Positions 173 through 58,979 of a stretch of 64,000 nt of DNA are shown one piece after another (the first letter of the stretch is position 1; every line of letters starts with the position of its first letter). The stretch is taken from NCBI GenBank assembly GCA_016207245.1, contig JACQQA010000004.1, positions 19,058 to 83,057 on the forward strand, read 5' to 3'. The notes beneath the pieces are model-generated. The model saw only the letters and a list, made by a program, of their open reading frames with translations, made no database searches and had not been told where the DNA came from. A program made the translations under genes and the position numbers. The stretch is from Candidatus Magasanikiibacteriota bacterium (lineage in GTDB: Bacteria > Patescibacteriota > Patescibacteriia > Magasanikbacterales > UBA922).

Positions 173-1210
173 ATGTCGCGCGAATTTTCCCAGCATATTA
201 ATGACTTTGACGCGATGCGTTTGCGCGTCGCTTCTCCGGAAGTTATCCACGCTTGGTCTCACGGCGAAGTAGTCAAGCCGGAAACCATCAATTATCGCAC
301 GCAAAAGCCGGAAAAGGGCGGTTTGTTTGCCGAGGAAATTTTTGGCCCGACCAAAGACTGGGAATGTTATTGCGGCAAATACAAAAAAATTCGTTACAAA
401 GGCATTGTTTGCGACAAGTGCGGAGTGGAGGTTACTCACTCTTTGGTGCGCCGCCAGCGCATGGGGCACATTGATTTAGCCGCTCCGGTCTCGCACATTT
501 GGTTTTTGCGCTCCGTGCCATCCAAGATCGGTTTAGTTTTGGATATGTCCATTCAGGCCATGGAGAAAGTGATATACTTCGCGTCTTTCGTGATTGTTAA
601 AGTTGACGAGGAACAAAAAAAGCAGACACACGAAGCTTTACGGTCTGAATACAAGAGCAAGAAAAAACAGATTTTAAATGAATTTGACCGCCAGACCAAA
701 GAAGCCAATGATAAAAAATTAAAAGCATCGGCGATAGAAGAATTAGCTAAAGAGCGCGATCGCAAATTAATCGCTTTGGAAGAAGATTTTACCGACGCCG
801 AAGACGAGTTGAAAGATATTCAAATGTTACGAGTGTTATCAGAAAATCGCTATCAGGAATTGGCCTTGCGCTATGGTTATTTGTTTGACGCGGAGATCGG
901 CGCCGAAGCCATCCGCCGCCTTTTGGAGAGATTAAATTTAACAGAAACGATTATTCGGCTGGAAGCGGAGATCAAAGAAACTAAGGGCGCCAAATGCGAG
1001 CGTTTAATTAAGCGCGTTAAACTTTTGCGCAGTTTGGAAAAAAATAAAATTCGGCCGGAGTGGATGATTCTGACCGCGATCCCGATCGTGCCGCCGGATC
1101 TGCGCCCGATGGTGGCTTTGGACGGCGGACGTTTCGCGACTTCCGACCTGAATGATTTGTATCGCCGCGTTATCAATCGCAACAACCGTTTGCGCCGATT
1201 ATTGGAATGA
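173..1210 (+). CDS. rpoC: RNA polymerase beta' subunit, N-terminal segment ending at an in-frame TGA
   Basis: Zn-ribbon [45 protein letters not shown]. Stops at TGA 1208-1210 in the same frame as 1247..4054. Confidence 0.9.
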
Positions 1211-1246
1211 AACGCTCCGGAAGTCATTTGCCGCAATGAAAAAAGA

Positions 1247-4054
<2,808 letters not shown>

Positions 4055-5835: not shown

Positions 5836-5875
5836 AAATACGCTCATTACACAGCAGATGATCGACCCGCCTCAT

Positions 5876-5900
5876 CGCCTGCCTGCCGGCAGGCAGGGCG
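5876..5900. repeat. P20 palindrome copy (CGCCTGCCTGCCGGCAGGCAGGGCG) inside RNase P RNA
   Basis: Perfect GC-rich palindrome just 5' of GGAAAGTCCG. The same core is at 11367, 55277, 56071 and 62944. Confidence 0.85.
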
Positions 5901-6249
5901 GGTAGGAAAGTCCGAGCTCCTTTTTTGACAATGGGTAATACCCATCCTTCATGTCGTGAGGCATTGAAGCGGGATAGCGCCACAGAGACAATACTACTTT
6001 GACACGCCGTAGCCTTGGCGGAGGCGGTAACAAAAACCCGCCTACGCTAAAGCTTCGGCGTGGCGAAGGAAACGTGAAAAGTGTATGGAGGTTTTGGTTC
6101 TAGATCAAAGCTACTATACTCTCCGACCCGTGAGGCGTCGGAGTGGCAAGCCCTGTCTGGAGAAAGTGCAGCGTCCCGATTTAATCGGGATGAAAAGTTA
6201 GCACGTTAGATCGCGTAGAGCAATTTACGCGACAGAGAAATGATCATTG

Positions 6250-6335
6250 CTTCGACTCGCTTCGCTCGCTCAGCACAAGCCCTATTAATAAAATAATATG
6301 ACTTGTCCTGAGCGAGGCCGTAGGCCGAGTCGAAG
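6250..6335. repeat. H-family hairpin element inside RNase P RNA
   Basis: CTTCGACTCG...CTCGCTCAGCACAAG / CTTGTCCTGAGCGAG...CGAGTCGAAG arms around an AT-rich loop, immediately 5' of ACAGAACTCGGC. Confidence 0.8.
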
Positions 6336-6418
6336 GACAGAACTCGGCTTATCGCTGTGGAATGAGCAATTAAAACCCCTCTTGAAAAAAGAGCGGGTTT
6401 TTGTTATCTTATTAATAT

Positions 6419-17827: not shown

Positions 17828-19969
17828 ATGAAGGATGAATTATCCAAAGCTTACGAGGCGCAAAAATACGAAACCGAGATTTACAAACGCTGGGAAGAAA
17901 GCGGGTTTTTCGCGCCGAATAAAGATTCCAAAGCAAAGCCTTTTTGCGTAATTATGCCGCCGCCGAACTCCAACGGCTCATTGCATATCGGCCACGCGGT
18001 TTTTGTGACTTTGGAAGATATTATGATTCGGTACCATCGGATGAAAGGCGAGGCGGCGTTATGGCTGCCCGGAGCCGACCACGCCGGATTTGAGACGCAG
18101 GTAGTGTATCAGAAAAAACTGGAAAAAGAAGGCCGAAATTGGTTTCATATTCCGCGCGAAGAATTATACAAAGAAATCTGGGATTTCACGCAGACAAATA
18201 AAAAAGTAATGGAGGGTCAGCTGCGCCGTTTGGGCGCTTCCTGTGATTGGTCGCGGGAGATTTTTACATTGGATGAAAGAATCGTCAAAACCGTCAACGA
18301 AACATTTAAAAAATTATACGATGACGGACTGGTTTATCGCGGCGAACGCATTATTAATTGGTGCGTTAAGCACCAGACGACCTTGTCTGATTTGGAAGTT
18401 AAGCACGAAGAAAAAGACGGCGCGCTTACGCACATTAAATACTCTATCAAAAACAGCGACAAGTTTATCATCGTGGCTACCACTCGTCCGGAGACAATGC
18501 TCGGAGACACTGCCGTGGCGGTGAATCCGAAAGACAAGAGATATAAAAATTTGATTGGGGAAATCGTGATTTTGCCTTTGGTCGGCCGCGAGATTCCCAT
18601 TGTGGCGGACGCGGCTGTGGAAATGGAGTTTGGCACCGGCGCGGTAAAGGTAACGCCAAGCCACGATCCTTTGGATTTTGAAATCGCCCAACGACATAAT
18701 TTGGAAAAAATTCAAGTGATTGGCCAAGATGGAAAAATGACCGTTGCGGCCGGCGCGCCGTATGCGGGTTTGAAAGCCGAAGAAGCGCGCGTTAAAGTGG
18801 TGGAAGATTTGCGCGCTCTCGGATTGATTGTCAAAGAGGAACCGCACAAACACGTTGTCGGCGCCTGCTATAAGTGCGGCCGCGTGATTGAGCCGTTAGT
18901 TTTGCCGCAGTGGTTTATAAAGGTTAAACCACTCACGGAAAAAGCGTTGAAAGCCGTGAAGGCCGGAAAGACAAAATTTGTCACTGAAAAATTTGAAAAA
19001 ATTTTTTTTCATTGGCTAAAAAACCTGCGCGATTGGAACATCTCGCGACAGATTGTCTGGGGCATTCGCATTCCGGTTTGGTATCGTTCGGCTGACGCTC
19101 ACGGCAAGTCAGAAGAAATTTATGTGGGGACGGAAGCGCCCAAAGGAGACGGCTGGGAGCAAGAAAAAGATGTTTTTGACACGTGGTTCTCTTCCAGCCA
19201 ATGGCCGTTCGCGACTTTGCAAATTACCGGCGATTTCAAAAAGTTTTATCCGACGTCAGTAATGGAAACCGGTTATGATATCCTGCCGTTTTGGGTGATG
19301 AGAATGTTAATGCTGGGGCTGTACGCGACCGGTAGGGTTCCGTTTCAAACAGTATATTTGCACGGTCTGGTTCGCGACAAAGACCGGCAGAAAATGAGCA
19401 AGTCCAAAGGCAATGTGATTGACCCATTGGGTGTGGTGGATATGTATGGCGCGGACGCCTTACGCATGGCTTTGGTGTTTGGCGTGTCCGCCGGCAATGA
19501 TATTGTTATTTCTGAAGATAAAATCCGCGCGCATCGCAATTTTGCCAATAAAATTTGGAATGCCTCGCGGTTTGTTTTGATGAATTTGGGCGATGATTCT
19601 AAACCGACTGACTCAGCTGAATTGAAAAAACAAAAATTGACTTCGGCCGATGCGCATATGCTGAAGCGGTTGTCTGAGGTAGTAAAAAGGGTTACTAAAT
19701 TTTTGGATAAATTTGAATTTCATTTAGCAGCCGAGGAAATTTATCAATTTTTTTGGCACGAATTTTGCGATAAATATTTGGAAGAAGTAAAACCGCGTTT
19801 GCAGATTGAAGGGGAAGAGAAGCGAGCGGCGCAGGCGGTTCTGCGCGAAACGCTCGTCAGCTCGCTTAAACTTCTGCATCCGTTTATGCCATTTGTGACC
19901 GAATCGGTTTACCAAATGCTGTCGGGAAAAGAAAAACAATTTTTAATGATTGAAGAGTGGCCTAAATAA
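17828..19969 (+). CDS. valS: Valyl-tRNA synthetase (short form)
   Basis: PPPNSNGSLHIGHA, TRPETMLGDTAVAVNP, KMSKSKGNVIDP. Start at ATG 17828 (MKDELSKAYE). Confidence 0.9.
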   Translation: MKDELSKAYEAQKYETEIYKRWEESGFFAPNKDSKAKPFCVIMPPPNSNGSLHIGHAVFVTLEDIMIRYHRMKGEAALWLPGADHAGFETQVVYQKKLEKEGRNWFHIPREELYKEIWDFTQTNKKVMEGQLRRLGASCDWSREIFTLDERIVKTVNETFKKLYDDGLVYRGERIINWCVKHQTTLSDLEVKHEEKDGALTHIKYSIKNSDKFIIVATTRPETMLGDTAVAVNPKDKRYKNLIGEIVILPLVGREIPIVADAAVEMEFGTGAVKVTPSHDPLDFEIAQRHNLEKIQVIGQDGKMTVAAGAPYAGLKAEEARVKVVEDLRALGLIVKEEPHKHVVGACYKCGRVIEPLVLPQWFIKVKPLTEKALKAVKAGKTKFVTEKFEKIFFHWLKNLRDWNISRQIVWGIRIPVWYRSADAHGKSEEIYVGTEAPKGDGWEQEKDVFDTWFSSSQWPFATLQITGDFKKFYPTSVMETGYDILPFWVMRMLMLGLYATGRVPFQTVYLHGLVRDKDRQKMSKSKGNVIDPLGVVDMYGADALRMALVFGVSAGNDIVISEDKIRAHRNFANKIWNASRFVLMNLGDDSKPTDSAELKKQKLTSADAHMLKRLSEVVKRVTKFLDKFEFHLAAEEIYQFFWHEFCDKYLEEVKPRLQIEGEEKRAAQAVLRETLVSSLKLLHPFMPFVTESVYQMLSGKEKQFLMIEEWPK

Positions 19970-27681: not shown

Positions 27682-30600
27682 ATGTCAAAAAAATGCAACA
27701 AACTTTTTACGATGTTGGTGGTATTTACTACTATTGTTTGGTCTTTGGGGATTTCAACATTGATTCCTCAAGCGGTTTTCGCGGCCACAGTTACTGTCGC
27801 CGGTCCGTATGATTTGTTGCCAACCGGCGGGATGACCGTCGCGGCCAGCAGTTATGATATTCCGGTTTTTCGTTTTGCTTTGAATAAGAGCTCCGGCGGC
27901 AGTGAGACGTTAACCAGCGTTACTGTCACTGTTACCAGCACTATCCCGACTAACAATGCCACTTTAGCCTCACACATTTCGCAACTAGTGGTTTTTAAAG
28001 ACAGTAATAACAACAATTATTTTGACCCTCAAAACGATAGTTTCGCCGGCACGCAAAGCACGGTTAACGTGGGTTCGGCCACGACGATTACCACCGGCAG
28101 CAACAATAGTTTGGCGGCAGACGGCGCTTTGCCAACCAGTTTTTTTGTGGCGATTAAAACAGCGTCCGGTTGGGCGGCTGGAGATTCTATTTATATTAAT
28201 TTCGCGGCGGACGGAATAGTGACGAATCCCTCGGGTAATTCACCGACCGTAACGCCTATTATCGGCTCCAGGGCAATATCTTTCAGCGGCGGCGGGGGAT
28301 GGAGCGGGTTTAGCATCAGCAGTGTTTCTTTTGTCAACGCGTCCAATGTGGATGTTTCTTTTACGGATAATTTGGATTTAAACACCGGCGCCGCCACTTC
28401 CACTGGCAATTATACTTTAAAAAACGCTTTGGGTGTTTCCCAAACAATCAGTTCCATTGTAGCTTTGCCGGATAATAAATCGGTCCGTTTGACCGTGGCT
28501 GGCGGGGTTACCATTCCTTCTGACGGAACCTATTCAGTTACTGTATCCAATGGAGTTAAAAATACTTTTGGTCAAGCCAATTCCGGTACCACCTCCTTTC
28601 CCATTATGAGCGCGCAAATGCCTTTATCTATTTCAGAGGTTAAGGTCGGTTCGGCTACGGATCCGTTTGATGAATTTATTGAAGTATATAACCGTTCTGG
28701 CGGAAATATTCCAACCTCCACTGTAAAATTGCATTTTGTGAACGCGGCCGGGACCGTAGATGTCAATGTTCCCTTGACTTTTCTTAATGAAAGCGTGGTG
28801 CCAAACATTCCATCTCATAAATTTCTATTGATCGCGCCAATTACTTCTTCCGCTTCTTCAACAGCAGACGCGGTTTATACCACCTCCACTCTTATTTCTT
28901 TGGTGTCCGGCGGCGCGGCGTATATCAGCAGCAGCGCGGCCAGCTCCACCGCGGTTATGGATAGAGTTTGCTGGGGCAGTCATGCTGTGTCAGGAGATTG
29001 CGAAGGCAGCGCGGCAAGCGGTTTAAGTACCAATGACGGCACCTCTATTGAACGCAAAGCATTTAATGATTCCACTTCAGCCAGCATGTTGGTTAGCGGC
29101 GCCGGTCCCGGGCAAGACGCTGATGATGGAAATGGCGTGGATACGCAGAACAATAATTTTGATTTTGTGGCACGGATTGTTCCCGAACCGCAAAACAGCC
29201 GCATTGCTTCAGCGGAAAATCCTACCGGCGGATCTTATGGCGGGACTAATAATCAAGCTCCCAGCATTCAGCACGCGCCGGTTTTCAAGGCCAGTATTGA
29301 TTCAATTCTAAATGTAGTAGCGAGAATTTTTGATGATGGCGGCACTGTTCCAGCAGGGAATACCCAGCTTATTTATTGTATCACTGCTTCCGCCACGTGC
29401 ACCCCTGCGTCATCAACGCCGATTTATGGCACAAGCATTGGTTCTGGCTGGTATAAATTCAGCACCACTTCAACTATCTCTACGGTTTTTGGCGCCAGTA
29501 AAACGCTCTTCAAATATTATCTTCAGGCGGCTGACTCGGCTTCACCGGCTAAAACTAAAGTTTATACCAATGACCCAACTTTTGACACTGTTACTTATGA
29601 TACCACCGGCACCGGCATTCAAACCGCGGCTCTGCAGCAAAGCAAATCTTTAGGTATCACTTTAAGTTCGGGTAATTTGGGTAGCGCCTCAATCATGGGC
29701 ACGGTTAATGACAGTTCGGGTGCGGCGGTCAGCGGCGCCACAGTTTGGATTGATGGCACGCAATTTGCCGCGACTACCGGCAGTGACGGCACATTTAGTT
29801 TTGCCAATGTCGGACCAACCGGCGGCGCTCAATTGAAAATCGCTAAAGACGGTTACGGCGATCAATCTCTTTCATTTTTTATTCCTTCTTCAGGTTTGGT
29901 TTCTTTGCCCGCCCTATCTTTGTATAGCGGCACTATGGGCGCGGGTGGCGACTATAATCAGCCTAAAGTAACAAATTCTTTTCCAGCTCCCGGTATGATG
30001 GGATTCCCGACTTTAAAGGGCGACGGTACGAATTCGTCTATAGAAGTTAATTTCAGCAAGGCCATGGACACCACTTCCTTTACTGGCGCCAATGTTTATC
30101 TGACCGAAGCTGGCAGCGGAACCCATATCGCCGGTTCAGTGGGAGTTGGTTCCACCACACAGGTTAAATTCACTCCGACTTCCGCGTTAACATCGGGCAA
30201 GAATTATACTCTGTTTTTAACGCCCGGCGTTAAAGATCCCGCCGGTAATCCAGTGGCTGGTAATAGCCCGGGAGGCAATTATATTTTGCCATTTTCCACA
30301 TCGGGAGGAATGTATGCCAGTGTCACGGATATTGGCGGAAATTTTGGCACCGGCAATGCTTTCCCTGCGTATGTGGTGGGCAGTCAGCCGGCTCCGGGCA
30401 AGCAGAGCGTGGCGCGCAACACCAAGGTTTTTGTGACTTTTTCCGAAGCCATGCAGAATTCCGCCACTAATTTGGCCAATATAAAATTGTATAAAGTCAC
30501 CAGCCCTTTCACTTCCAGTGAATCAAAAACCCAAGTGACAGTCACTAACAGTATTGATAGCAGTAATAAAATAGTTATTCTTACCCCATCAAGCAATCTG

Positions 30601-33600
30601 GATGTGAGTTCTCATTATCGCGTGGAAGTGTTGGGCGGTATGACGTCGTCCAAGGGGATTCCATTGGGTAATCCCGGAACATCCGGTTATCTGACCAGTG
30701 TGAAATATCAATCGGATTTTGATACCAGTTCCAGCGTGACCGGGGATCTTACCGCTCCGACTGTTGATAACACAATACCGGCTGATGCCGCAACCGGAAT
30801 TTCCACACTAAGACCAATCATCATCAACTTCTCCGAATCAATGAACCCGTCAACTATCACTGATACATCTGTAGTTATCAAACTTGGTTCTACAGCGATT
30901 GCCGGTAATTTGACTTATGACCCGAATAATTGGATGGCGGTTTTCACTCCTGACTACTCCTTAACTCCTACCAGCACTTATACAATTACAGTCACGACTG
31001 GCGCGCAAGATTTGGCGGGCAATGCTTTGGCATCAACGCTTTTGCGCACCTTCACTACTGGTAGCGCCGACACTTCTTCCCCAACAGTAGTCTCTGCTCA
31101 AGCCAATGATTATGCCTTGAAGATTGATTTTTCTAAGCCGATGCTGGCGGTTTCGGCAAGCGATATTAATTACGCGAACAGCGTCTTGAAACCGGCCAAT
31201 TATACAATTCATAGAGTTAATTCCGCGGGCGCGACGCAATCGACGATTGCGACTTCCACTGCCACCATAACTTATGACGCGGCCAGCCGCAGTGTGGCTT
31301 TGAATGGCATTACCGGTATTGTCGCCAATGATTTGATAAACATCAGCGTTGGCGGCGTGAAAGATATTGGTTTCAATAATATCGCTTCTGGTTCAGCCGC
31401 AGCCGTGACTACTACCGCGCAATCCAGCGCTAAGACCGGCAATTTTACTGGCGGCGGCATGGGCATGATGGGTCCGCAGTTTGACGCCGGCGGCAATATG
31501 ATGCAGGGCGGGATGATGGGCGCTCCGCCGGCCATGGTTGGCACATTTGTTGATTCAGGAATCGGTTTTGCTCCGGGCGTTAAAGTGTATCCATTCAATT
31601 CTATGGCTTCGGTCAGTACGATTTACGGCGTTGAAATTCCCATTTCCTACCAAATTCCAAACGCCGGGTTTATTGATATTGCTTTCCCGGATGGGACCGA
31701 TGTTGTTAACGCTAAAAAAGACACTGCCAGTCCGCCAAATAATGATTTGAACGGGCCAGGGCCGGGCGTAGTCGTGTTTGGCACGAGCGAAGGAACTTTG
31801 CCTTCCGGCTGGACAACCGGCGGCGCGGCTAGCGACGGAGTGATTGTGAATACTGATTCGCGCACTGTTAGAGTTATTTTGGGAGCAGTGGCCACGCGCC
31901 GCGGCAGCGCCAATTTGACCTCCGGCGATGGCGATCAGCATGATTTTATACGTTTGGATATCGCGCAAATCACCAATCCTTCCAGCGCCACAAAAGTCGG
32001 CATGAGTGGAAATTCCGCGACTGTTTCCACTAAAAAAGCCGATGGTACGGTATTAGAAACCCTATCATCTGGTTCGTTCTCAACTTCGGCCGCCGGCAGT
32101 TTCACTGTGCGCGGCCGCGTGATGGCTGGCGCCAGCGGAGTCAACGGCATTAATGTTTTCTTGATGTCGCCAATGACCGGTCCGCAGTCAACTTCAACCG
32201 CGACAGGACGGTTCAATGGCCAGACCGGAGAATTTATGTTCCAAAATCTGGTGGCTGGAAATTATATGTTAGGAGCGGAACAGTTTGCCAAATCCGGCGC
32301 CACGAGTTATACAGCCGGTTTCCCGGCGCCGATTAATGTCAATTCCACCAACTGCGCGTCCGATATCTGCAGTCAAAATGTTACTGTCGTGGATGCTTCC
32401 ACCGGAGTGGCGGTGACATTAAATATCAGCGGCACTTTCAGTAGCAACGCGATTGATATTTTTGCCGGCGGCCCCGGTTCATTTAGAAAAGCCACGTCAA
32501 CTTTAGACGGCGTGCTTGTTGCTGACACCTCCAATTCAATAAAATTAAACGCTAATGGCGTATGGATGGTTGGTTTTGGTCCGCAAATGTCCACCGAAAT
32601 GTTCGGCAAGAGCGGTCCTTCAGCACCTACCACCTGGATGCCGCCCAAACCGCAAGAAGTGCAGGTGAGCGGCTGTCCGACTGCTTGCGCGGTTAATCCA
32701 ACCACCTTGACATTCAATGTTTCAACCGCAAACAAGACAATTAAATTCACGGTTAAAGATGCTTCCAGCAACGCGATTGGTAAAGCAAACGTCTTCGCTT
32801 ATTCGCCGGCTTCCAACGCGGGGAACAGCACCATGGCGGACGCTGACGGCACCGGCTCAATTAATTTGTCTTATGGCACGTATAAGATTGGCGCGAGTGT
32901 TTCCGGCATGCCCGGCGGCGTGGAGAGGTCAATACTTATTAAAGATGATGGCGGCGCTGATAAAGTGTTTGTTGATGGTTCAAGCACCGGCATCGCTTTA
33001 TCCAGCATGACCAGCGCGAGCTTGACACTGACTATCAGCAAGCCATCCTATACCATTTCCGGCCAAGTGACTGATGGCACCAATCCGGTCGCTAACGCGC
33101 CGGTAAGCGCTTATCGCACTGACGGACCAGGTAATTCAAACACCTTTACCAATTCTTCCGGAAACTACACATTGTATGTGGCCAATGGAACTTGGAAAGT
33201 GCAAGCCTTTACTCCTGATTATGGCAAATTACCGGAGCAGACAGTGACTATCAGTGGTTCCAATTCCAGCGGTAAGAATTTTGAACCAAATACCAGCGCG
33301 GTAACTTATGCCACCATTACTAAGAGCGTTGGCAATGACGCGGATGCCGATGGCGTGCTTGACGCCGGAGAAGGAACCAGCAACGTACAGTTAATTGTTG
33401 AAGGTACGACCGGCGATTTGAATAATGACGGCGACACTAGCGACAGCGGCGAAAATGTCAGCTACGTTAATAGCGGTGTGACTGATACCAATGGCAGTTC
33501 TACTCTTAAACTTCCACCCGGCACTTACACAATGAAGGCCTATTCGTCAATTCAGGGCGAGATGTCATCTTCAACACAGAGTATTGTGGTCAATGGCGCC

Positions 33601-36546
33601 GGCACAGTTACCACCGCGCCCTATGATATTCTGGCGCCAAAGACCGGCGCGGTGACCATCAACCTTTTGGATTCTAATGGTACTGCTACGAGTAGCATGA
33701 AAGCAGTGGTAGAGTTTATGCAAATTGGCGGCAAGATTGATAAGACCGAATCGTTCAGTGGAACCGCCTCCAGCACTATTTCTTTGTCGCAATTTGATGT
33801 GGCTAACGCCCTCAATGCGGTTACGAGCACCAACCCGACTAACATGTACCTAATGAATGTGACCATTCCCGGTGTCTCGGATAGCGGTTTGATCGCGTAT
33901 GGCGCGGATAGCGACACCGTACTTGCGACCTCCACCGCGGCCAGTGGCTATTGGAAGGTGGAAGTGGACGCTAACACAGAATCAATTAATATAAAATTAC
34001 CGGTTCTTAATTATGTCAGTGGCACGGTTAAAGACGGCGCTGGCAGCGCTGTGCCAGACGCCACGGTGCATTTTGAGAATTCTTCAACGAATGAGAAAGT
34101 TGACGTGCAAGCTGACACCAGCGGCAATTATTCCACCAAGCTTTCCAGCGCGACATATTTAGTCAGCGCCACTAAAGACGGCTACATTGATACCGCTTCC
34201 AGCGTAGCGGTAAGCGCGAGCGGCGCGTTAGCCGATTCAGCCACAACAATGACCGCCGCTTCTTACACGATTTCCGGCACGATTACTGCCGGCAGTTCAG
34301 CGGCATCCGGCGCCACAGTGCGCGCGGAAAAATTGGGTGGCGGTATAGTAACTGCCACCACTGGTTCGGACGGCACCTATTCTTTAAAGGTTATTAACGG
34401 TAATTGGAAAGTTTCTGCCGCAGCCGATGGCTATACTGAAGGCACTTATAGTTCTGTTGTGGCTGTCAGTAGCGCCAATGTTTCTGGCATCAATCTTACT
34501 CTTTCCACCACCGCCACTTCGCTTTCCGGCTCAACTTCCCAATCTGTTACTCCGCAAAATGGCGGTTCAATGACAGACTCTTCCGCCGGCGCTTCGGTTA
34601 AAGCTTCAGAGTCGGCGTTGGCTATTTCCGCCAATCCATACACTTTGAATGATAAGGAAGTTTCCAATGTGGTCGGCGGCAATGCCGGAACACCGATCAG
34701 CGGTGAAGCAAAAACAATCAGCAGTTATGATAATGATGGTAATGCCGTAACATTGCTAAAAGACGATGTCGCTGTTAGTGCCAGTTATTCCAGCAGTGAT
34801 ATGACAACGGCTTTGGGCACCTTAACTTTGGCAAAATTAGAAAAAGTGCAAATGGGTTCATGGGATGAGACTGCGGATAATTGGCAGACTTTGCCGACAA
34901 CTGTCGCATATAAAGATTCCAGTGGTAAATTTATTGAACCATCAGTAAGCGCCGCAACCGTCGCTTACACCGGCCAAACTTCCCACTTTTCTTCCTTCAA
35001 TCCGATTGCTCCGTCTGATGGTTCGGCGCCAGCTGTTATAACCAATGTTGCGGCGGTTGCCGGCAGTAATTCCGTATCCGTAACTTGGACAGCCGGTAGC
35101 GAGGGTGATTTACAAGGTTATGATATTTACCGGTCAACTTCGGCGAACGGTACTTATTCATCGCTTGGATCATCAACATCCAATAGTTATACCGATTCTT
35201 CAGCCGTTAATGGCAGCACCTATTATTATAAAGTAACGGCAACTGATACCGGTGGTTTGGAATCAGATCTTTCTTCAGCCTCTAATGCTGTCACACCAAA
35301 CAGTGCCAGTGGAGGTGGTGGAGGAGGCGGTGGTGGTGGTGGAACAAGTTCACCGCCAACATTCGGCGCAGTTCCGGTTTCAGTGGACGGCAATGCAGCA
35401 AAGAGTTCTTCTATCGTTACGTTGAAATTTAGCGTAACCAACGCGGTTCAAATGGCCATTTCAGAGAAAGCTGATTTTTCCGGCGCCGCGTGGGAAAGTT
35501 ATTCTTCCACCAAGAAACAGACCTTATCTAGCGGTCTGGGCGCTAAGATATTGTATGTAAAATTCCGCAGCGCCAGCGGCGAGACAACTGCCATTAAGAC
35601 AATTGACATTATGGTAGTTTCCGAAGCTACTGTGGAAGAGAAGAAGGCGGCGGAGGAATCTACTGTTGTTGAAAAGACGACTACCGCCACCTGTCCATTG
35701 ACTATCGGCAGTGCCTATAAGCTCGGCAACTCGGCGGCGGTTTTCTATGTTACCTCTGATTGCGCCAAGCGTCCGTTCAACAAAGCTAACGTATTTTTCA
35801 CCTATTTTACTTCGTGGTCAGATGTTAAAACCACTACCGCGGGAGTGTTGAATGATCTGAAGAATGATGCTATTGGTTTTATGCCATGGGGTCCGAAATA
35901 TGATCCGAAATACGGCGCGTTAGTGAAAATCGTTACGGATCCGAAAGTGTATCTGTTGCTTGGCACAGAAAAATATTGGATAACATCAGAAACAGTATTT
36001 GAGGGTCTTGGTTATGCTTGGAATTGGGTGGAAGATATTGATGAGGCGTTGTTAAATAAATATACCGTTGGTTCGGAGATCACTTACACCAATCATCATC
36101 CGAATTATACCCTGATTAAGTATAAGAATAGTTCCAAAGTGTACCGTTTGGAACCGGATCCGAAAGACGCGGCCAAGCAAGTCAAGCGCCATGTGAAAGA
36201 TGAAGCAGCTTTTAACGCTTTGACTTTCCGTTGGGATAGAATTGTGACGGTTGATAGCAAAGAAGCGTATGCGGACGGCGAAACATTGACAGCGCCGGCG
36301 AGCGTAAAGAAAGTTGACAAAGGAGTGTACAAGTTCAGTTTGACTCTGCAACAGGGGGACAGCGGCGCGGAAGTGACAAAATTGCAGGAAAAGCTTGAAG
36401 CTCTCGGCTATTTTTCCGCTGAACCCACCGGCACTTTCGGCGCCAAAACCAAAGAAGCGGTGATAAAATTTCAGCAGGCTTATAAATTAGCGCCTTACCC
36501 GGGCGTGGTTGGCAAGGCCACCAGAGACGTGCTTAATAGTCTTTGA
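27682..36546 (+). CDS. Giant secreted cell-surface protein (2954 aa): signal peptide, lamin-tail domain, many Ig-like / carboxypeptidase-regulatory-like repeats, FN3, poly-Gly linker, C-terminal peptidoglycan-binding domain
   Basis: Signal peptide MSKKCNKLFTMLVVFTTIVWSLG...AVFA. LTD-like ISEVKVGSATDPFDEFIEVYN. Repeated GxVxDxxGxxVxxAxV...DGxYxF modules. FN3 YDIYRS...YYYKVTATD. G11 run at 35311-35343. PG_binding_1-like tail GDSGAEVTKLQEKLEALGYF. Confidence 0.9.
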   Translation: MSKKCNKLFTMLVVFTTIVWSLGISTLIPQAVFAATVTVAGPYDLLPTGGMTVAASSYDIPVFRFALNKSSGGSETLTSVTVTVTSTIPTNNATLASHISQLVVFKDSNNNNYFDPQNDSFAGTQSTVNVGSATTITTGSNNSLAADGALPTSFFVAIKTASGWAAGDSIYINFAADGIVTNPSGNSPTVTPIIGSRAISFSGGGGWSGFSISSVSFVNASNVDVSFTDNLDLNTGAATSTGNYTLKNALGVSQTISSIVALPDNKSVRLTVAGGVTIPSDGTYSVTVSNGVKNTFGQANSGTTSFPIMSAQMPLSISEVKVGSATDPFDEFIEVYNRSGGNIPTSTVKLHFVNAAGTVDVNVPLTFLNESVVPNIPSHKFLLIAPITSSASSTADAVYTTSTLISLVSGGAAYISSSAASSTAVMDRVCWGSHAVSGDCEGSAASGLSTNDGTSIERKAFNDSTSASMLVSGAGPGQDADDGNGVDTQNNNFDFVARIVPEPQNSRIASAENPTGGSYGGTNNQAPSIQHAPVFKASIDSILNVVARIFDDGGTVPAGNTQLIYCITASATCTPASSTPIYGTSIGSGWYKFSTTSTISTVFGASKTLFKYYLQAADSASPAKTKVYTNDPTFDTVTYDTTGTGIQTAALQQSKSLGITLSSGNLGSASIMGTVNDSSGAAVSGATVWIDGTQFAATTGSDGTFSFANVGPTGGAQLKIAKDGYGDQSLSFFIPSSGLVSLPALSLYSGTMGAGGDYNQPKVTNSFPAPGMMGFPTLKGDGTNSSIEVNFSKAMDTTSFTGANVYLTEAGSGTHIAGSVGVGSTTQVKFTPTSALTSGKNYTLFLTPGVKDPAGNPVAGNSPGGNYILPFSTSGGMYASVTDIGGNFGTGNAFPAYVVGSQPAPGKQSVARNTKVFVTFSEAMQNSATNLANIKLYKVTSPFTSSESKTQVTVTNSIDSSNKIVILTPSSNLDVSSHYRVEVLGGMTSSKGIPLGNPGTSGYLTSVKYQSDFDTSSSVTGDLTAPTVDNTIPADAATGISTLRPIIINFSESMNPSTITDTSVVIKLGSTAIAGNLTYDPNNWMAVFTPDYSLTPTSTYTITVTTGAQDLAGNALASTLLRTFTTGSADTSSPTVVSAQANDYALKIDFSKPMLAVSASDINYANSVLKPANYTIHRVNSAGATQSTIATSTATITYDAASRSVALNGITGIVANDLINISVGGVKDIGFNNIASGSAAAVTTTAQSSAKTGNFTGGGMGMMGPQFDAGGNMMQGGMMGAPPAMVGTFVDSGIGFAPGVKVYPFNSMASVSTIYGVEIPISYQIPNAGFIDIAFPDGTDVVNAKKDTASPPNNDLNGPGPGVVVFGTSEGTLPSGWTTGGAASDGVIVNTDSRTVRVILGAVATRRGSANLTSGDGDQHDFIRLDIAQITNPSSATKVGMSGNSATVSTKKADGTVLETLSSGSFSTSAAGSFTVRGRVMAGASGVNGINVFLMSPMTGPQSTSTATGRFNGQTGEFMFQNLVAGNYMLGAEQFAKSGATSYTAGFPAPINVNSTNCASDICSQNVTVVDASTGVAVTLNISGTFSSNAIDIFAGGPGSFRKATSTLDGVLVADTSNSIKLNANGVWMVGFGPQMSTEMFGKSGPSAPTTWMPPKPQEVQVSGCPTACAVNPTTLTFNVSTANKTIKFTVKDASSNAIGKANVFAYSPASNAGNSTMADADGTGSINLSYGTYKIGASVSGMPGGVERSILIKDDGGADKVFVDGSSTGIALSSMTSASLTLTISKPSYTISGQVTDGTNPVANAPVSAYRTDGPGNSNTFTNSSGNYTLYVANGTWKVQAFTPDYGKLPEQTVTISGSNSSGKNFEPNTSAVTYATITKSVGNDADADGVLDAGEGTSNVQLIVEGTTGDLNNDGDTSDSGENVSYVNSGVTDTNGSSTLKLPPGTYTMKAYSSIQGEMSSSTQSIVVNGAGTVTTAPYDILAPKTGAVTINLLDSNGTATSSMKAVVEFMQIGGKIDKTESFSGTASSTISLSQFDVANALNAVTSTNPTNMYLMNVTIPGVSDSGLIAYGADSDTVLATSTAASGYWKVEVDANTESINIKLPVLNYVSGTVKDGAGSAVPDATVHFENSSTNEKVDVQADTSGNYSTKLSSATYLVSATKDGYIDTASSVAVSASGALADSATTMTAASYTISGTITAGSSAASGATVRAEKLGGGIVTATTGSDGTYSLKVINGNWKVSAAADGYTEGTYSSVVAVSSANVSGINLTLSTTATSLSGSTSQSVTPQNGGSMTDSSAGASVKASESALAISANPYTLNDKEVSNVVGGNAGTPISGEAKTISSYDNDGNAVTLLKDDVAVSASYSSSDMTTALGTLTLAKLEKVQMGSWDETADNWQTLPTTVAYKDSSGKFIEPSVSAATVAYTGQTSHFSSFNPIAPSDGSAPAVITNVAAVAGSNSVSVTWTAGSEGDLQGYDIYRSTSANGTYSSLGSSTSNSYTDSSAVNGSTYYYKVTATDTGGLESDLSSASNAVTPNSASGGGGGGGGGGGTSSPPTFGAVPVSVDGNAAKSSSIVTLKFSVTNAVQMAISEKADFSGAAWESYSSTKKQTLSSGLGAKILYVKFRSASGETTAIKTIDIMVVSEATVEEKKAAEESTVVEKTTTATCPLTIGSAYKLGNSAAVFYVTSDCAKRPFNKANVFFTYFTSWSDVKTTTAGVLNDLKNDAIGFMPWGPKYDPKYGALVKIVTDPKVYLLLGTEKYWITSETVFEGLGYAWNWVEDIDEALLNKYTVGSEITYTNHHPNYTLIKYKNSSKVYRLEPDPKDAAKQVKRHVKDEAAFNALTFRWDRIVTVDSKEAYADGETLTAPASVKKVDKGVYKFSLTLQQGDSGAEVTKLQEKLEALGYFSAEPTGTFGAKTKEAVIKFQQAYKLAPYPGVVGKATRDVLNSL

Positions 36547-43064: not shown

Positions 43065-43100
43065 AACCCAAAGGGCGATAGCTTTTGGGTTATTTTGTTT
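43065..43100 (+). terminator. Terminator-like hairpin in the operon leader (possible attenuator)
   Basis: AACCCAAA(G) pairs with (C)TTTTGGGTT, 10-nt loop, then ATTTTGTTT. The 3' arm overlaps the TTG start candidate at 43085. Confidence 0.5.
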
Positions 43101-44164
43101 GTCTTGTGGATAAAGAAGGTTCGCCGCAATCCGTCGGCATTATTTACAGCGAGGTGAAAAGAGAGTATTTTCCCACTGAAACACAATATCTAACCGAGAA
43201 AGACGCTGAACATGACGCGAAGATAATCGGCGGTTATTTGGAGCGCATGGGAATAAAAGTTTTTTATTATCCCGGCACGCCGACCTTGGTAGTGGATTTG
43301 TTGCGCGATCGTCCGGAAATGGTGTTTAATTTGGTCGGTTCAATCCACGGCCAGGAATATCTGGCGTCAACCATCCCCGGGATTTTAGAGTCATTGGACA
43401 TTCCCTACACCGGCGCGGGAATCTTGGGAGAAACTCTGGCTTACAATAAATTTTTAGTTAAAGATCTTTTGCAGTCGCATGGCATTCCGGTTCCGCGCAG
43501 CCAGCTCTTTTCCTCGCCGAATTTGCTTTTAGATATGAAGATGCGTTTTCCGTTGATTACCAAGCTTAATGAAATCCACGGCGCCGTGGAGATAACCAAA
43601 GACGCGGTTTCTGACAGTGAAAAACATTTGCGTGAAAGGCTGAAGTTCTTAATTAACACTTATAAACAGCCGGCTTTGGCCGAGGAGTTCATCGCCGGAC
43701 GCGAGATTACGGCGATTGTGCTTGAAGGGCTGAATCGCAAAGTGTATTTGGCGGAAAAAATTTTTAAGGAAGAAAATAATCCCAACCAAATCGCTTCGTT
43801 TGAATACCAATGGACGGAAGAGGCGCATTATCAGAAATTTGAAGATCCTTATCTGGCCGATTTGGTAAAAAGGGCGTTTGACGTTTTGCGCATGTCGGAT
43901 TACGGCAAGTTTGATATTCGGATGGATCAATCAAACCGGTATTATTTTATTGACAGCAACTCCAACCCGGCATTCGGTCCGAAAGAGCTGGATTGCGCGA
44001 TTGCCAACATTCTTGGCCTGTATGGAATAGATTTTACGGAAATTTTGAAACGTTTGCTTTTAAATACCATGCGCGACGCTCAAGGCAAGGAAAGGTTGCC
44101 GTTCACTCCATCAGAAGGAAATTCTAATAATGAATCCACCACGAATGAATATGTCGCTGAATAG
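43085..44164 (+). CDS. ATP-grasp ligase, D-alanine--D-alanine ligase-like (1 of 2); start uncertain (TTG 43085 or GTG 43106)
   Basis: IPYTGAGILGETLAYNKFLVKDLLQSHGIPVP, FPLITK.., ALAEEFIAGREIT and a C-terminal FIDSNSNPAF-type Mg/ATP motif. Confidence 0.75.
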   Translation: MGYFVCLVDKEGSPQSVGIIYSEVKREYFPTETQYLTEKDAEHDAKIIGGYLERMGIKVFYYPGTPTLVVDLLRDRPEMVFNLVGSIHGQEYLASTIPGILESLDIPYTGAGILGETLAYNKFLVKDLLQSHGIPVPRSQLFSSPNLLLDMKMRFPLITKLNEIHGAVEITKDAVSDSEKHLRERLKFLINTYKQPALAEEFIAGREITAIVLEGLNRKVYLAEKIFKEENNPNQIASFEYQWTEEAHYQKFEDPYLADLVKRAFDVLRMSDYGKFDIRMDQSNRYYFIDSNSNPAFGPKELDCAIANILGLYGIDFTEILKRLLLNTMRDAQGKERLPFTPSEGNSNNESTTNEYVAE

Positions 44165-45182
44165 AATCGCTTTTCTTTACAATGTGCGGCGCAATTATCC
44201 GGATCCCAATGAAAAACAGGTTCAGCTTGACACTGATTTTGACGACCCGGCAACGATTGATTCGTTTGTCAAGCATCTACAAAATTTGAATTTAACCGTT
44301 TTGCCGATTGAAGCGGATGAATCAGCGTATTTGCGCTTGCAGGAAAATAAAGACAAAATAGATCTGGTGTTTAATTTCGCGGAAGGTCTACACGGCCGTG
44401 ATCGCGAGTGCCAGATTCCCGCTATGTTGGAGATGCTAAAAATTCCTTACACCGGCGGTTCGCCTCTGACTGAAGCTCTGGTTTTGGATAAGGCGATTGC
44501 CAAAGATGTTTTACGGTCTCATGGGGTTCCGGTTCTACCACATCAAGTATTTTCAACTGAAACCGAAGAGCTGGATCTGGAATTAAAATTTCCTTTGATT
44601 GTAAAACCGAACTCGCAGGGTTCATCAGCCGGCATAACCAATGACAGCGTAGTTGAAAACGAGAATGAGTTGCGCCGCCAGTTGAAATTTGTTATCAGCA
44701 ATTTTAAACAAAAAGCGTTGGTAGAACCGTTTTTGGACGGTCGGGAATTTTCCGTCCCGATGTTGGGAAATAATCCGCCGGAAATTTTACCGATAATTGA
44801 ATCTGACCACTCAACTTTGCCGGCCGGATTAAAACCGCTCGATTCTTTGGAAGTAAAATGGATTGTGGAGGAAGAAAGCGGCGGCGCGAATTTTATTTGT
44901 CCGGCCAAAATCAGTCCTGATTTAGAAGAAAAAATTAAACAGATTTGTTTACAAACATGGGAAGTTTTGCGGCTATGCGATTTTTGCAGAATTGACATCC
45001 GCTGCGATCGCGCCGGCAATCCGTATGTTTTGGAAGTTAATTCTCCGGCCGGATTAATTCCGCCGGAAGTATCCATGACTTCGTATTTCCCGCTCTCCGC
45101 CCGCGTCGCCGGAATGGATTATGAAACGCTTTTAAAGAAAATTCTTTCCGCCGCCTGTCATCGCTACGGCATTACTTATTAA
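44130..45182 (+). CDS. ATP-grasp ligase, D-alanine--D-alanine ligase-like (2 of 2)
   Basis: IPYTGGSPLTEALVLDKAIAKDVLRSHGVPV, FPLIVKPNSQGSSAGI, ALVEPFLDGREFSV, VLEVNSPAG. Overlaps the upstream gene; alternative ATGs at 44148 and 44154. Confidence 0.8.
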   Translation: MNPPRMNMSLNRIAFLYNVRRNYPDPNEKQVQLDTDFDDPATIDSFVKHLQNLNLTVLPIEADESAYLRLQENKDKIDLVFNFAEGLHGRDRECQIPAMLEMLKIPYTGGSPLTEALVLDKAIAKDVLRSHGVPVLPHQVFSTETEELDLELKFPLIVKPNSQGSSAGITNDSVVENENELRRQLKFVISNFKQKALVEPFLDGREFSVPMLGNNPPEILPIIESDHSTLPAGLKPLDSLEVKWIVEEESGGANFICPAKISPDLEEKIKQICLQTWEVLRLCDFCRIDIRCDRAGNPYVLEVNSPAGLIPPEVSMTSYFPLSARVAGMDYETLLKKILSAACHRYGITY

Positions 45183-58934: not shown

Positions 58935-58968
58935 TTCCTCGACTCACTTCGTTCGCTCGGAATGACAG
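58935..58968. repeat. H-family element in the rpsL 5' leader
   Basis: TTCCTCGACTCACTTCGTTCGCTCGGAATGACAG ends 12 nt before the rpsL ATG. Confidence 0.75.
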
Positions 58969-58979
58969 ACCGAAAAAAT

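Follow-up and report, generated by a model that had tools for sequence, protein, structure and literature searches.

A lone in-frame TGA in rpoC of a Magasanikbacteria genome is probably a consensus error or an unrepresentative allele

A single TGA codon interrupts the rpoC gene of a Candidatus Magasanikiibacteriota bacterium. We consider it probable that this codon is an assembly consensus error or a very recent, unrepresentative allele, and that the real RNA polymerase β′ subunit is a single chain with leucine at residue 346. The gene lies in a stretch of 64,000 nt (hereafter the window; positions 19,058–83,057 of the forward strand of contig JACQQA010000004.1, assembly GCA_016207245.1) and is made up of the following features.

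173..4054, forward strand: rpoC (RNA polymerase β′), 1293 codons on read-through, colinear with full-length homologues
173..1210, forward strand: N-terminal ORF of 345 aa, closed by the in-frame TGA; identical to MBI4426977.1
1208..1210, forward strand: in-frame TGA at a Leu codon (TTA in the nearest relative), equivalent to E. coli β′ Leu285
1211..1246, forward strand: 12 codons, NAPEVICRNEKR (E. coli residues 286–297), from the stop to the first in-frame ATG
1247..4054, forward strand: C-terminal ORF of 935 aa, from the conserved Met of NEKRM to a TAA stop

The interrupted gene and its surroundings

The two ORFs share a common frame with the lone TGA between them, and around 1199–1249 the letters run CGA TTA TTG GAA TGA AAC GCT CCG GAA GTC ATT TGC CGC AAT GAA AAA AGA ATG ATG. 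Translation of 173..4054 gives 1293 residues with one asterisk, at residue 346, where a bacterial rpoC would be expected to have an uninterrupted frame. A sequence-only reading of this DNA had described the pair as one colinear β′ gene broken by a lone stop codon, and the translation, the Pfam matches and the homologues all bear this out. The RNA_pol_Rpb1_1 domain spans the break, with profile positions 3–252 matched in the first ORF and 267–312 in the second. Rpb1 domains 1–5 are all found over the two ORFs (Pfam PF04997, PF00623, PF04983, PF05000 and PF04998), and the read-through β′ contains the catalytic motif NADFDGDQM. Across the six frames of the window, rpoC is the sole case of long stop-to-stop ORFs (363 + 948 codons) that abut in the same frame; the remaining abutting pairs reach at most 197 codons and are mostly in the wrong frame or antisense to real genes. 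Since this is the only such pair, and since Rpb1_1 runs across the break, the gene is genuinely interrupted and the two ORFs are not a chance juxtaposition.

The position of rpoC is canonical, directly after rpoB, inside the 3′ end of which the window opens. The surrounding gene order is syntenic with that in two relatives, L001 (the nearest, 95% identical in amino acids and 85% in nucleotides) and L002 (GCA_016212615.1, a 90%-identical relative). Downstream of rpoC lie a bactofilin gene and then a diacylglycerol-kinase-like gene, an arrangement that both relatives share. Approximately 2 kb upstream of rpoB, at 387–1960 of its own contig, L002 carries a bAvd gene and a reverse transcriptase in two called fragments, which looks like a diversity-generating retroelement, with the reverse transcriptase possibly frameshifted. 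The rpsL-rpsG-fusA operon of the window (58962–62093, forward strand) is not directly downstream of rpoBC but ~55 kb away, and its S12 protein has an N-terminal extension of ~40 residues ahead of the Pfam domain.

The stop is already present in the public record. At NCBI, MBI4426977.1 is called 'hypothetical protein HY569_00615'; its contig, 83,371 bp long, belongs to a Magasanikbacteria MAG. The depositor's Prodigal annotation split rpoC in two.

We also recorded other features of the window, the RNA and protein genes listed with coordinates being on the forward strand. A bacterial class A RNase P RNA at 5851–6362 is 512 nt long against a model of 367 positions, scores 117.8 bits (gathering score 100) and so has sizeable insertions compared with the consensus. 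Cofactor-independent phosphoglycerate mutase (iPGM_N + Metalloenzyme) is encoded by two full-length paralogues in tandem, of 540 aa (13312–14934) and 525 aa (14937–16514), and the ~1.5 kb between these genes and a preceding glycosyltransferase cluster (11767–13311) holds short ORFs only, with no Pfam or Rfam match. Two adjacent D-Ala-D-Ala-ligase-like ATP-grasp genes were found at 43085–44164 and 44130–45182, the first matching weakly (E = 4e-8). The window ends within a 16S rRNA gene, of which it includes the 5′ third (63461–64000). CarboxypepD_reg and Big_5 (Ig-like) domains recur in the ORF of 2954 aa at 27682–36546, which has a peptidoglycan-binding domain at its C-terminus and whose product is probably a cell-surface protein. 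GC skew is ~0 across this ORF, dropping there unlike elsewhere in the window.

The residue at the stop and the constraint around it

We compared the read-through protein with its best 120 homologues, all of which are full-length single β′ chains of 1272–1337 aa. The top two are 95% and 90% identical, the first over 100% of its length, and the named sources are mostly Candidatus Magasanikbacteria or other Patescibacteria/CPR. The stop had been placed at a position that is usually Leu, and Leu is indeed the residue in 103 of the 103 scorable sequences, in the context ..RL(L/I/M/V)(E/D)-L-(N/H/S)APEVICRNEKRM.. The 12-codon stretch that follows is almost as rigid: 10 of its 12 residues are invariant in the same 103 sequences, and variation is confined to two positions, the first residue (N, H or S) and the cysteine, which is rarely T or A.

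At this codon and its two neighbours, the nearest relative reads GAA TTA AAC and the window GAA TGA AAC. One T-to-G transversion, at window position 1209, thus separates the stop from a sense codon, as had been proposed. Leu is often encoded by TTA here (207 of the 944 Leu codons in 19 genes), and L002 has CTG at this position. A scan of JGI metagenome contigs with the 21-mer GGAATNAAACGCTCCGGAAGT, bearing N at the variable base, matched nine contigs, none of the same species (≤86% nucleotide identity), and all nine carry T at that base, giving TTA. In total, the codon is TTA in ten related contigs (L001 and these nine) and CTG in one (L002). All members of the cluster that contains the 95% relative come from sister species and have Leu, and P0245, the only other member of the cluster of protein P0177, also has Leu; it comes from a protein-level soil assembly and resembles the sister lineage. 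The sequence-only reading had held that TTA or TTG at this codon in reads or sibling genomes would mark an assembly error or minor allele, and by this measure the TTA of the siblings favours the error or minor allele, although indirectly, as the TTA-bearing relatives are sister species (~85% nucleotide identity) and not the window's own population.

Relative to L001, dN/dS is 0.021 for codons 1–345 and 0.030 for codons 359–1293, with dS ~1, and the 12-codon stretch up to ATG 1247 shows two synonymous and no non-synonymous differences. When amino acid changes were polarised with 39 further homologues, 27 were derived in the window (the stop among them) against 33 in the sister, so that no excess of change in the window lineage over the sister lineage was found. 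The window departs from columns conserved at ≥95% in 12 places, mostly by conservative swaps (V/I, K/R, M/L), and its relatives do so in 8–13. Judged by these substitution patterns, rpoC is fully constrained apart from the stop codon, with no sign of decay. Because this constraint is undiminished, the stop should be either extremely recent or not real.

On the reading we favour, the change from TTA to TGA at 1209 has no function. The G would be a consensus error of a short-read metagenome, or a very recent minor or deleterious allele written into the contig, and the true β′ of the organism would be one chain of 1293 residues with Leu at 346. We infer that the reads, or most cells, carry T at 1209.

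We looked for the same organism in other data. Logan contigs L092–L095 (SRR12113384, SRR12113385 and SRR12113422) match the window at 100% identity, and the Logan contigs retrieved for this organism begin at window position 3058 or beyond, downstream of the stop. Look-ups of exact proteins (both ORFs, P0177, and the C-terminal products from 1211 and 1250) matched no contig. The homologue searches for same-species fragments across the stop gave a single match at 100% identity, the deposited 345-aa protein; their listed matches are at most ~1.75 times the query length (the longest being 594 aa for a 340-aa query and 361 aa for a 206-aa query), so same-species fragments of ~600–1000 aa may have been missed. 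A scan of genome contigs with a 404-aa segment gave a best match of 85% identity among the matches listed.

The style of the locus tags and accessions and the identity to SRR12113384, SRR12113385 and SRR12113422 point to a study of Northern California groundwater as the source. That study used Illumina 150-bp reads, MEGAHIT assembly, IDBA-UD scaffolding and Prodigal in meta mode (PMC7906910). Our best guess for the source MAG, made from GC content, placement in the tree and accession numbers by interpolation, is S_p2_S4_coassembly_Magasanikbacteria_45_150, which would have 150x coverage. If this source study is the right one, a MEGAHIT/IDBA MAG could plausibly contain one wrong consensus base in 64 kb. 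If the coverage was indeed 150x, a random sequencing error would be unlikely to win the consensus, and the G would more probably be real in part of the population.

Two other records were considered as recurrences of the break and rejected. The protein P0255 also ends at ...RLKQLLD, the same residue as the 345-aa ORF, but its contig (L096, ENA ERZ4208449, an unrelated Patescibacteria rpoC scaffold) has a scaffold gap at 1130–1205, with a run of 10 N and a duplicated 9-mer, CTTTTGGAC, at a coverage of 2.5. This break is an assembly artefact with the look of a split gene. P0273 belongs to a protein-level assembly and has an arbitrary end.

If the TGA is an artefact or a stray allele, its importance is practical only. 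The public MAG record holds a broken rpoC, as a 345-aa 'hypothetical protein' and a truncated β′. Marker-gene phylogenies, completeness estimates and code-inference tools can all be misled by it. Should G prove dominant in the reads, the case would be a rare natural example of an essential subunit of the polymerase that needs UGA read-through, or that is split within the element on which σ docks.

Read-through, split subunit, second copy and reassignment

Three options had been left open by the sequence-only reading: an error or minor allele, read-through or suppression, and a physically split β′. The first is favoured by the evidence above, and we found no positive evidence for the other two. 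Under read-through, the cells would have a single rpoC copy with the TGA as its true and dominant allele; a fraction of their ribosomes would decode UGA, either with near-cognate tRNA-Trp or with a suppressor tRNA whose gene lies beyond the window, giving a full-length β′ substituted at residue 346. We regard this as unlikely. UGA is the leakiest stop codon in bacteria, and the frame and all downstream residues are preserved, as expected if a full-length product is made; the possibly high coverage of the source MAG, itself a guess, would also speak against a random sequencing error. However, the preservation is equally explained by a recent or artefactual change, and TGA is absent from all relatives compared. 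Read-through of a few percent would be strongly deleterious for an essential, stoichiometric polymerase subunit, and the Leu is invariant.

The use of TGA elsewhere in the window bears on the same question. The other 40 ORFs end in TAA (19), TGA (15) or TAG (6), in keeping with the earlier remark that several genes terminate with TGA. Among the products of the TGA-ended genes are EF-G, TrmD, RNase III, NusB and a histidine kinase, with Pfam domains that finish 1–23 residues before the C-terminus. An A follows nine natural TGA stops, and TGA-A, the context in rpoC, is the commonest natural terminator context in the window. Since these nine stops share it, the context does not mark the rpoC codon as leaky. 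In ~19,000 codons of the window there is exactly one in-frame TGA; the 2954-aa ORF is uninterrupted, the remaining housekeeping genes of the 64 kb are all intact, and no second interrupted gene was found in the window. The earlier statement that other genes lack an internal TGA therefore holds, and a standing suppressor would be expected to tolerate such codons in other genes.

The four tRNAs of the window are Leu(GAG), Arg(TCG), Lys(CTT) and Pro(GGG), and none within the 64 kb has the anticodon UCA. Together with the RNase P RNA and the start of the 16S rRNA, these tRNAs make up the Rfam matches in the window, with nothing near the TGA. The region 1190–1290, at and downstream of the UGA, folds no better than shuffled sequence (z = 0.16). 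We therefore rejected a structure 3′ of the UGA that would stimulate read-through and, from this fold and the lack of an Rfam element near the site, selenocysteine insertion through a SECIS. Programmed frameshifting was rejected as well, frame 0 being colinear on either side of the stop.

Another possibility is that β′ is made in two pieces, the 345-aa product and a second one re-initiated 37 nt downstream at ATG 1247, which would assemble into a polymerase that lacks 13 residues (Leu and NAPEVICRNEKR). The earlier expectation that a restart at 1247 drops 12 conserved residues is correct, as there are exactly 12 codons in between. Alignment to PDB structures (query offset 233) equates residue 346 with E. 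coli β′ Leu285, and the landmarks R275, E295 and A302 of the E. coli numbering match R, E and A in the window. The stop thereby maps, by alignment, to the tip of the clamp coiled-coil, the clamp helices that bind σ. A restart at ATG 1247 would lose the equivalents of E. coli residues 286–297, the start of the second clamp helix. The lost residues include the equivalent of E. coli E295, which is reportedly a σ-binding determinant in the work of Arthur et al. in 2000 and Young et al. in 2001.

In favour of a split, the break falls at the tip of a hairpin, between two helices, and there are precedents: the cyanobacterial γ/β′ arrangement is a natural split of β′, and E. coli β′ tolerates some artificial splits. 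We examined 30 gene starts in the window and found no strong match to a Shine-Dalgarno sequence: the best duplex reaches −6.6 kcal/mol, and most lie near 0. The leaders are mostly A/T-rich. The organism appears to use SD-independent initiation, and the A-rich stretch before ATG 1247 could serve as a restart site. As genes here lack Shine-Dalgarno sequences, the quality of the start site cannot decide on the split. Against it, the skipped residues begin the second helix of the clamp coiled-coil (β′ 260–309), the main docking site for σ region 2 (PMC12000874, which cites Arthur et al. 2000 and Young et al. 2001). Ten of these 12 residues are the invariant ones noted above, and the stretch has no amino acid change in the window, unlike an untranslated spacer. 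ATG 1247 simply codes for the universally conserved Met of NEKRM. No relative is broken here: the best 120 homologues are single chains, and L001 and L002 run through the site. A functional split of β′ is unlikely, and we give this two-piece version very little credence; if true, it would yield an N-terminal peptide MMQEAVDALIDNNAR without NAPEVICR. A natural population of Magasanikbacteria with UGA as the dominant allele of its only β′ gene, sustained either by read-through or by a two-piece β′, is in our view a slender prospect.

It is more doubtful again that this rpoC is a freshly inactivated pseudogene and that a second, intact rpoC elsewhere supplies β′. Our view covers 64 kb of the genome, which leaves room for such a copy. 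Yet the interrupted gene occupies the canonical place after rpoB, in synteny with L001 and L002, its constraint is not relaxed, and small CPR genomes are not known to carry rpoC in duplicate.

The chance that UGA is reassigned in this lineage, as Gly in code 25 (Gracilibacteria/Absconditabacteria) or as Trp in code 4, seems negligible: the organism belongs to the CPR, in which some other lineages use code 25, but 15 of the 40 other ORFs terminate in TGA, at the C-termini that their domains predict, the in-frame TGA is alone in ~19,000 codons, and it aligns with an invariant Leu, encoded by TTA or CTG in close relatives, rather than with Gly or Trp. Genome-wide reassignment had already been called unlikely, and the window itself effectively excludes it.

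Comparison with known systems

Natural splits of β′, namely the cyanobacterial and plastid rpoC1/rpoC2 and the archaeal A′/A″, likewise consist of two consecutive ORFs on the same strand that together cover β′. They lie far downstream of the break seen here, with γ chains of ~625 aa (624–626 aa observed) against 345 aa. They are conserved across whole clades, lose nothing conserved at the junction and have proper start sites, whereas the break in this rpoC occurs in no relative and would remove 12–13 almost invariant residues of the clamp helices.

UGA recoding, in code 25, code 4 or selenocysteine insertion, resembles the present case in that an in-frame UGA lies within a conserved protein of a CPR bacterium. 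It differs in that UGA is a normal terminator here, the in-frame case is solitary, the aligned residue is Leu, and the site has no SECIS-like hairpin or Rfam element. The +1 frameshift of prfB also involves an in-frame UGA early in an essential gene. However, rpoC stays colinear in frame 0, the stop takes the place of exactly one residue, and the site lacks both the CUU-UGA slippery sequence and an upstream SD-like element.

The closest likeness is to the 'internal stop' pseudogenes that arise in short-read MAGs from consensus errors or minor alleles. As in those, one substitution falls in an intact, constrained, essential gene, the sense codon of the relatives is one step away, and the gene caller has made two ORFs of one. 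The difference from plain base-calling errors is that the source MAG here may have high coverage, which would point to a real minor or recent allele.
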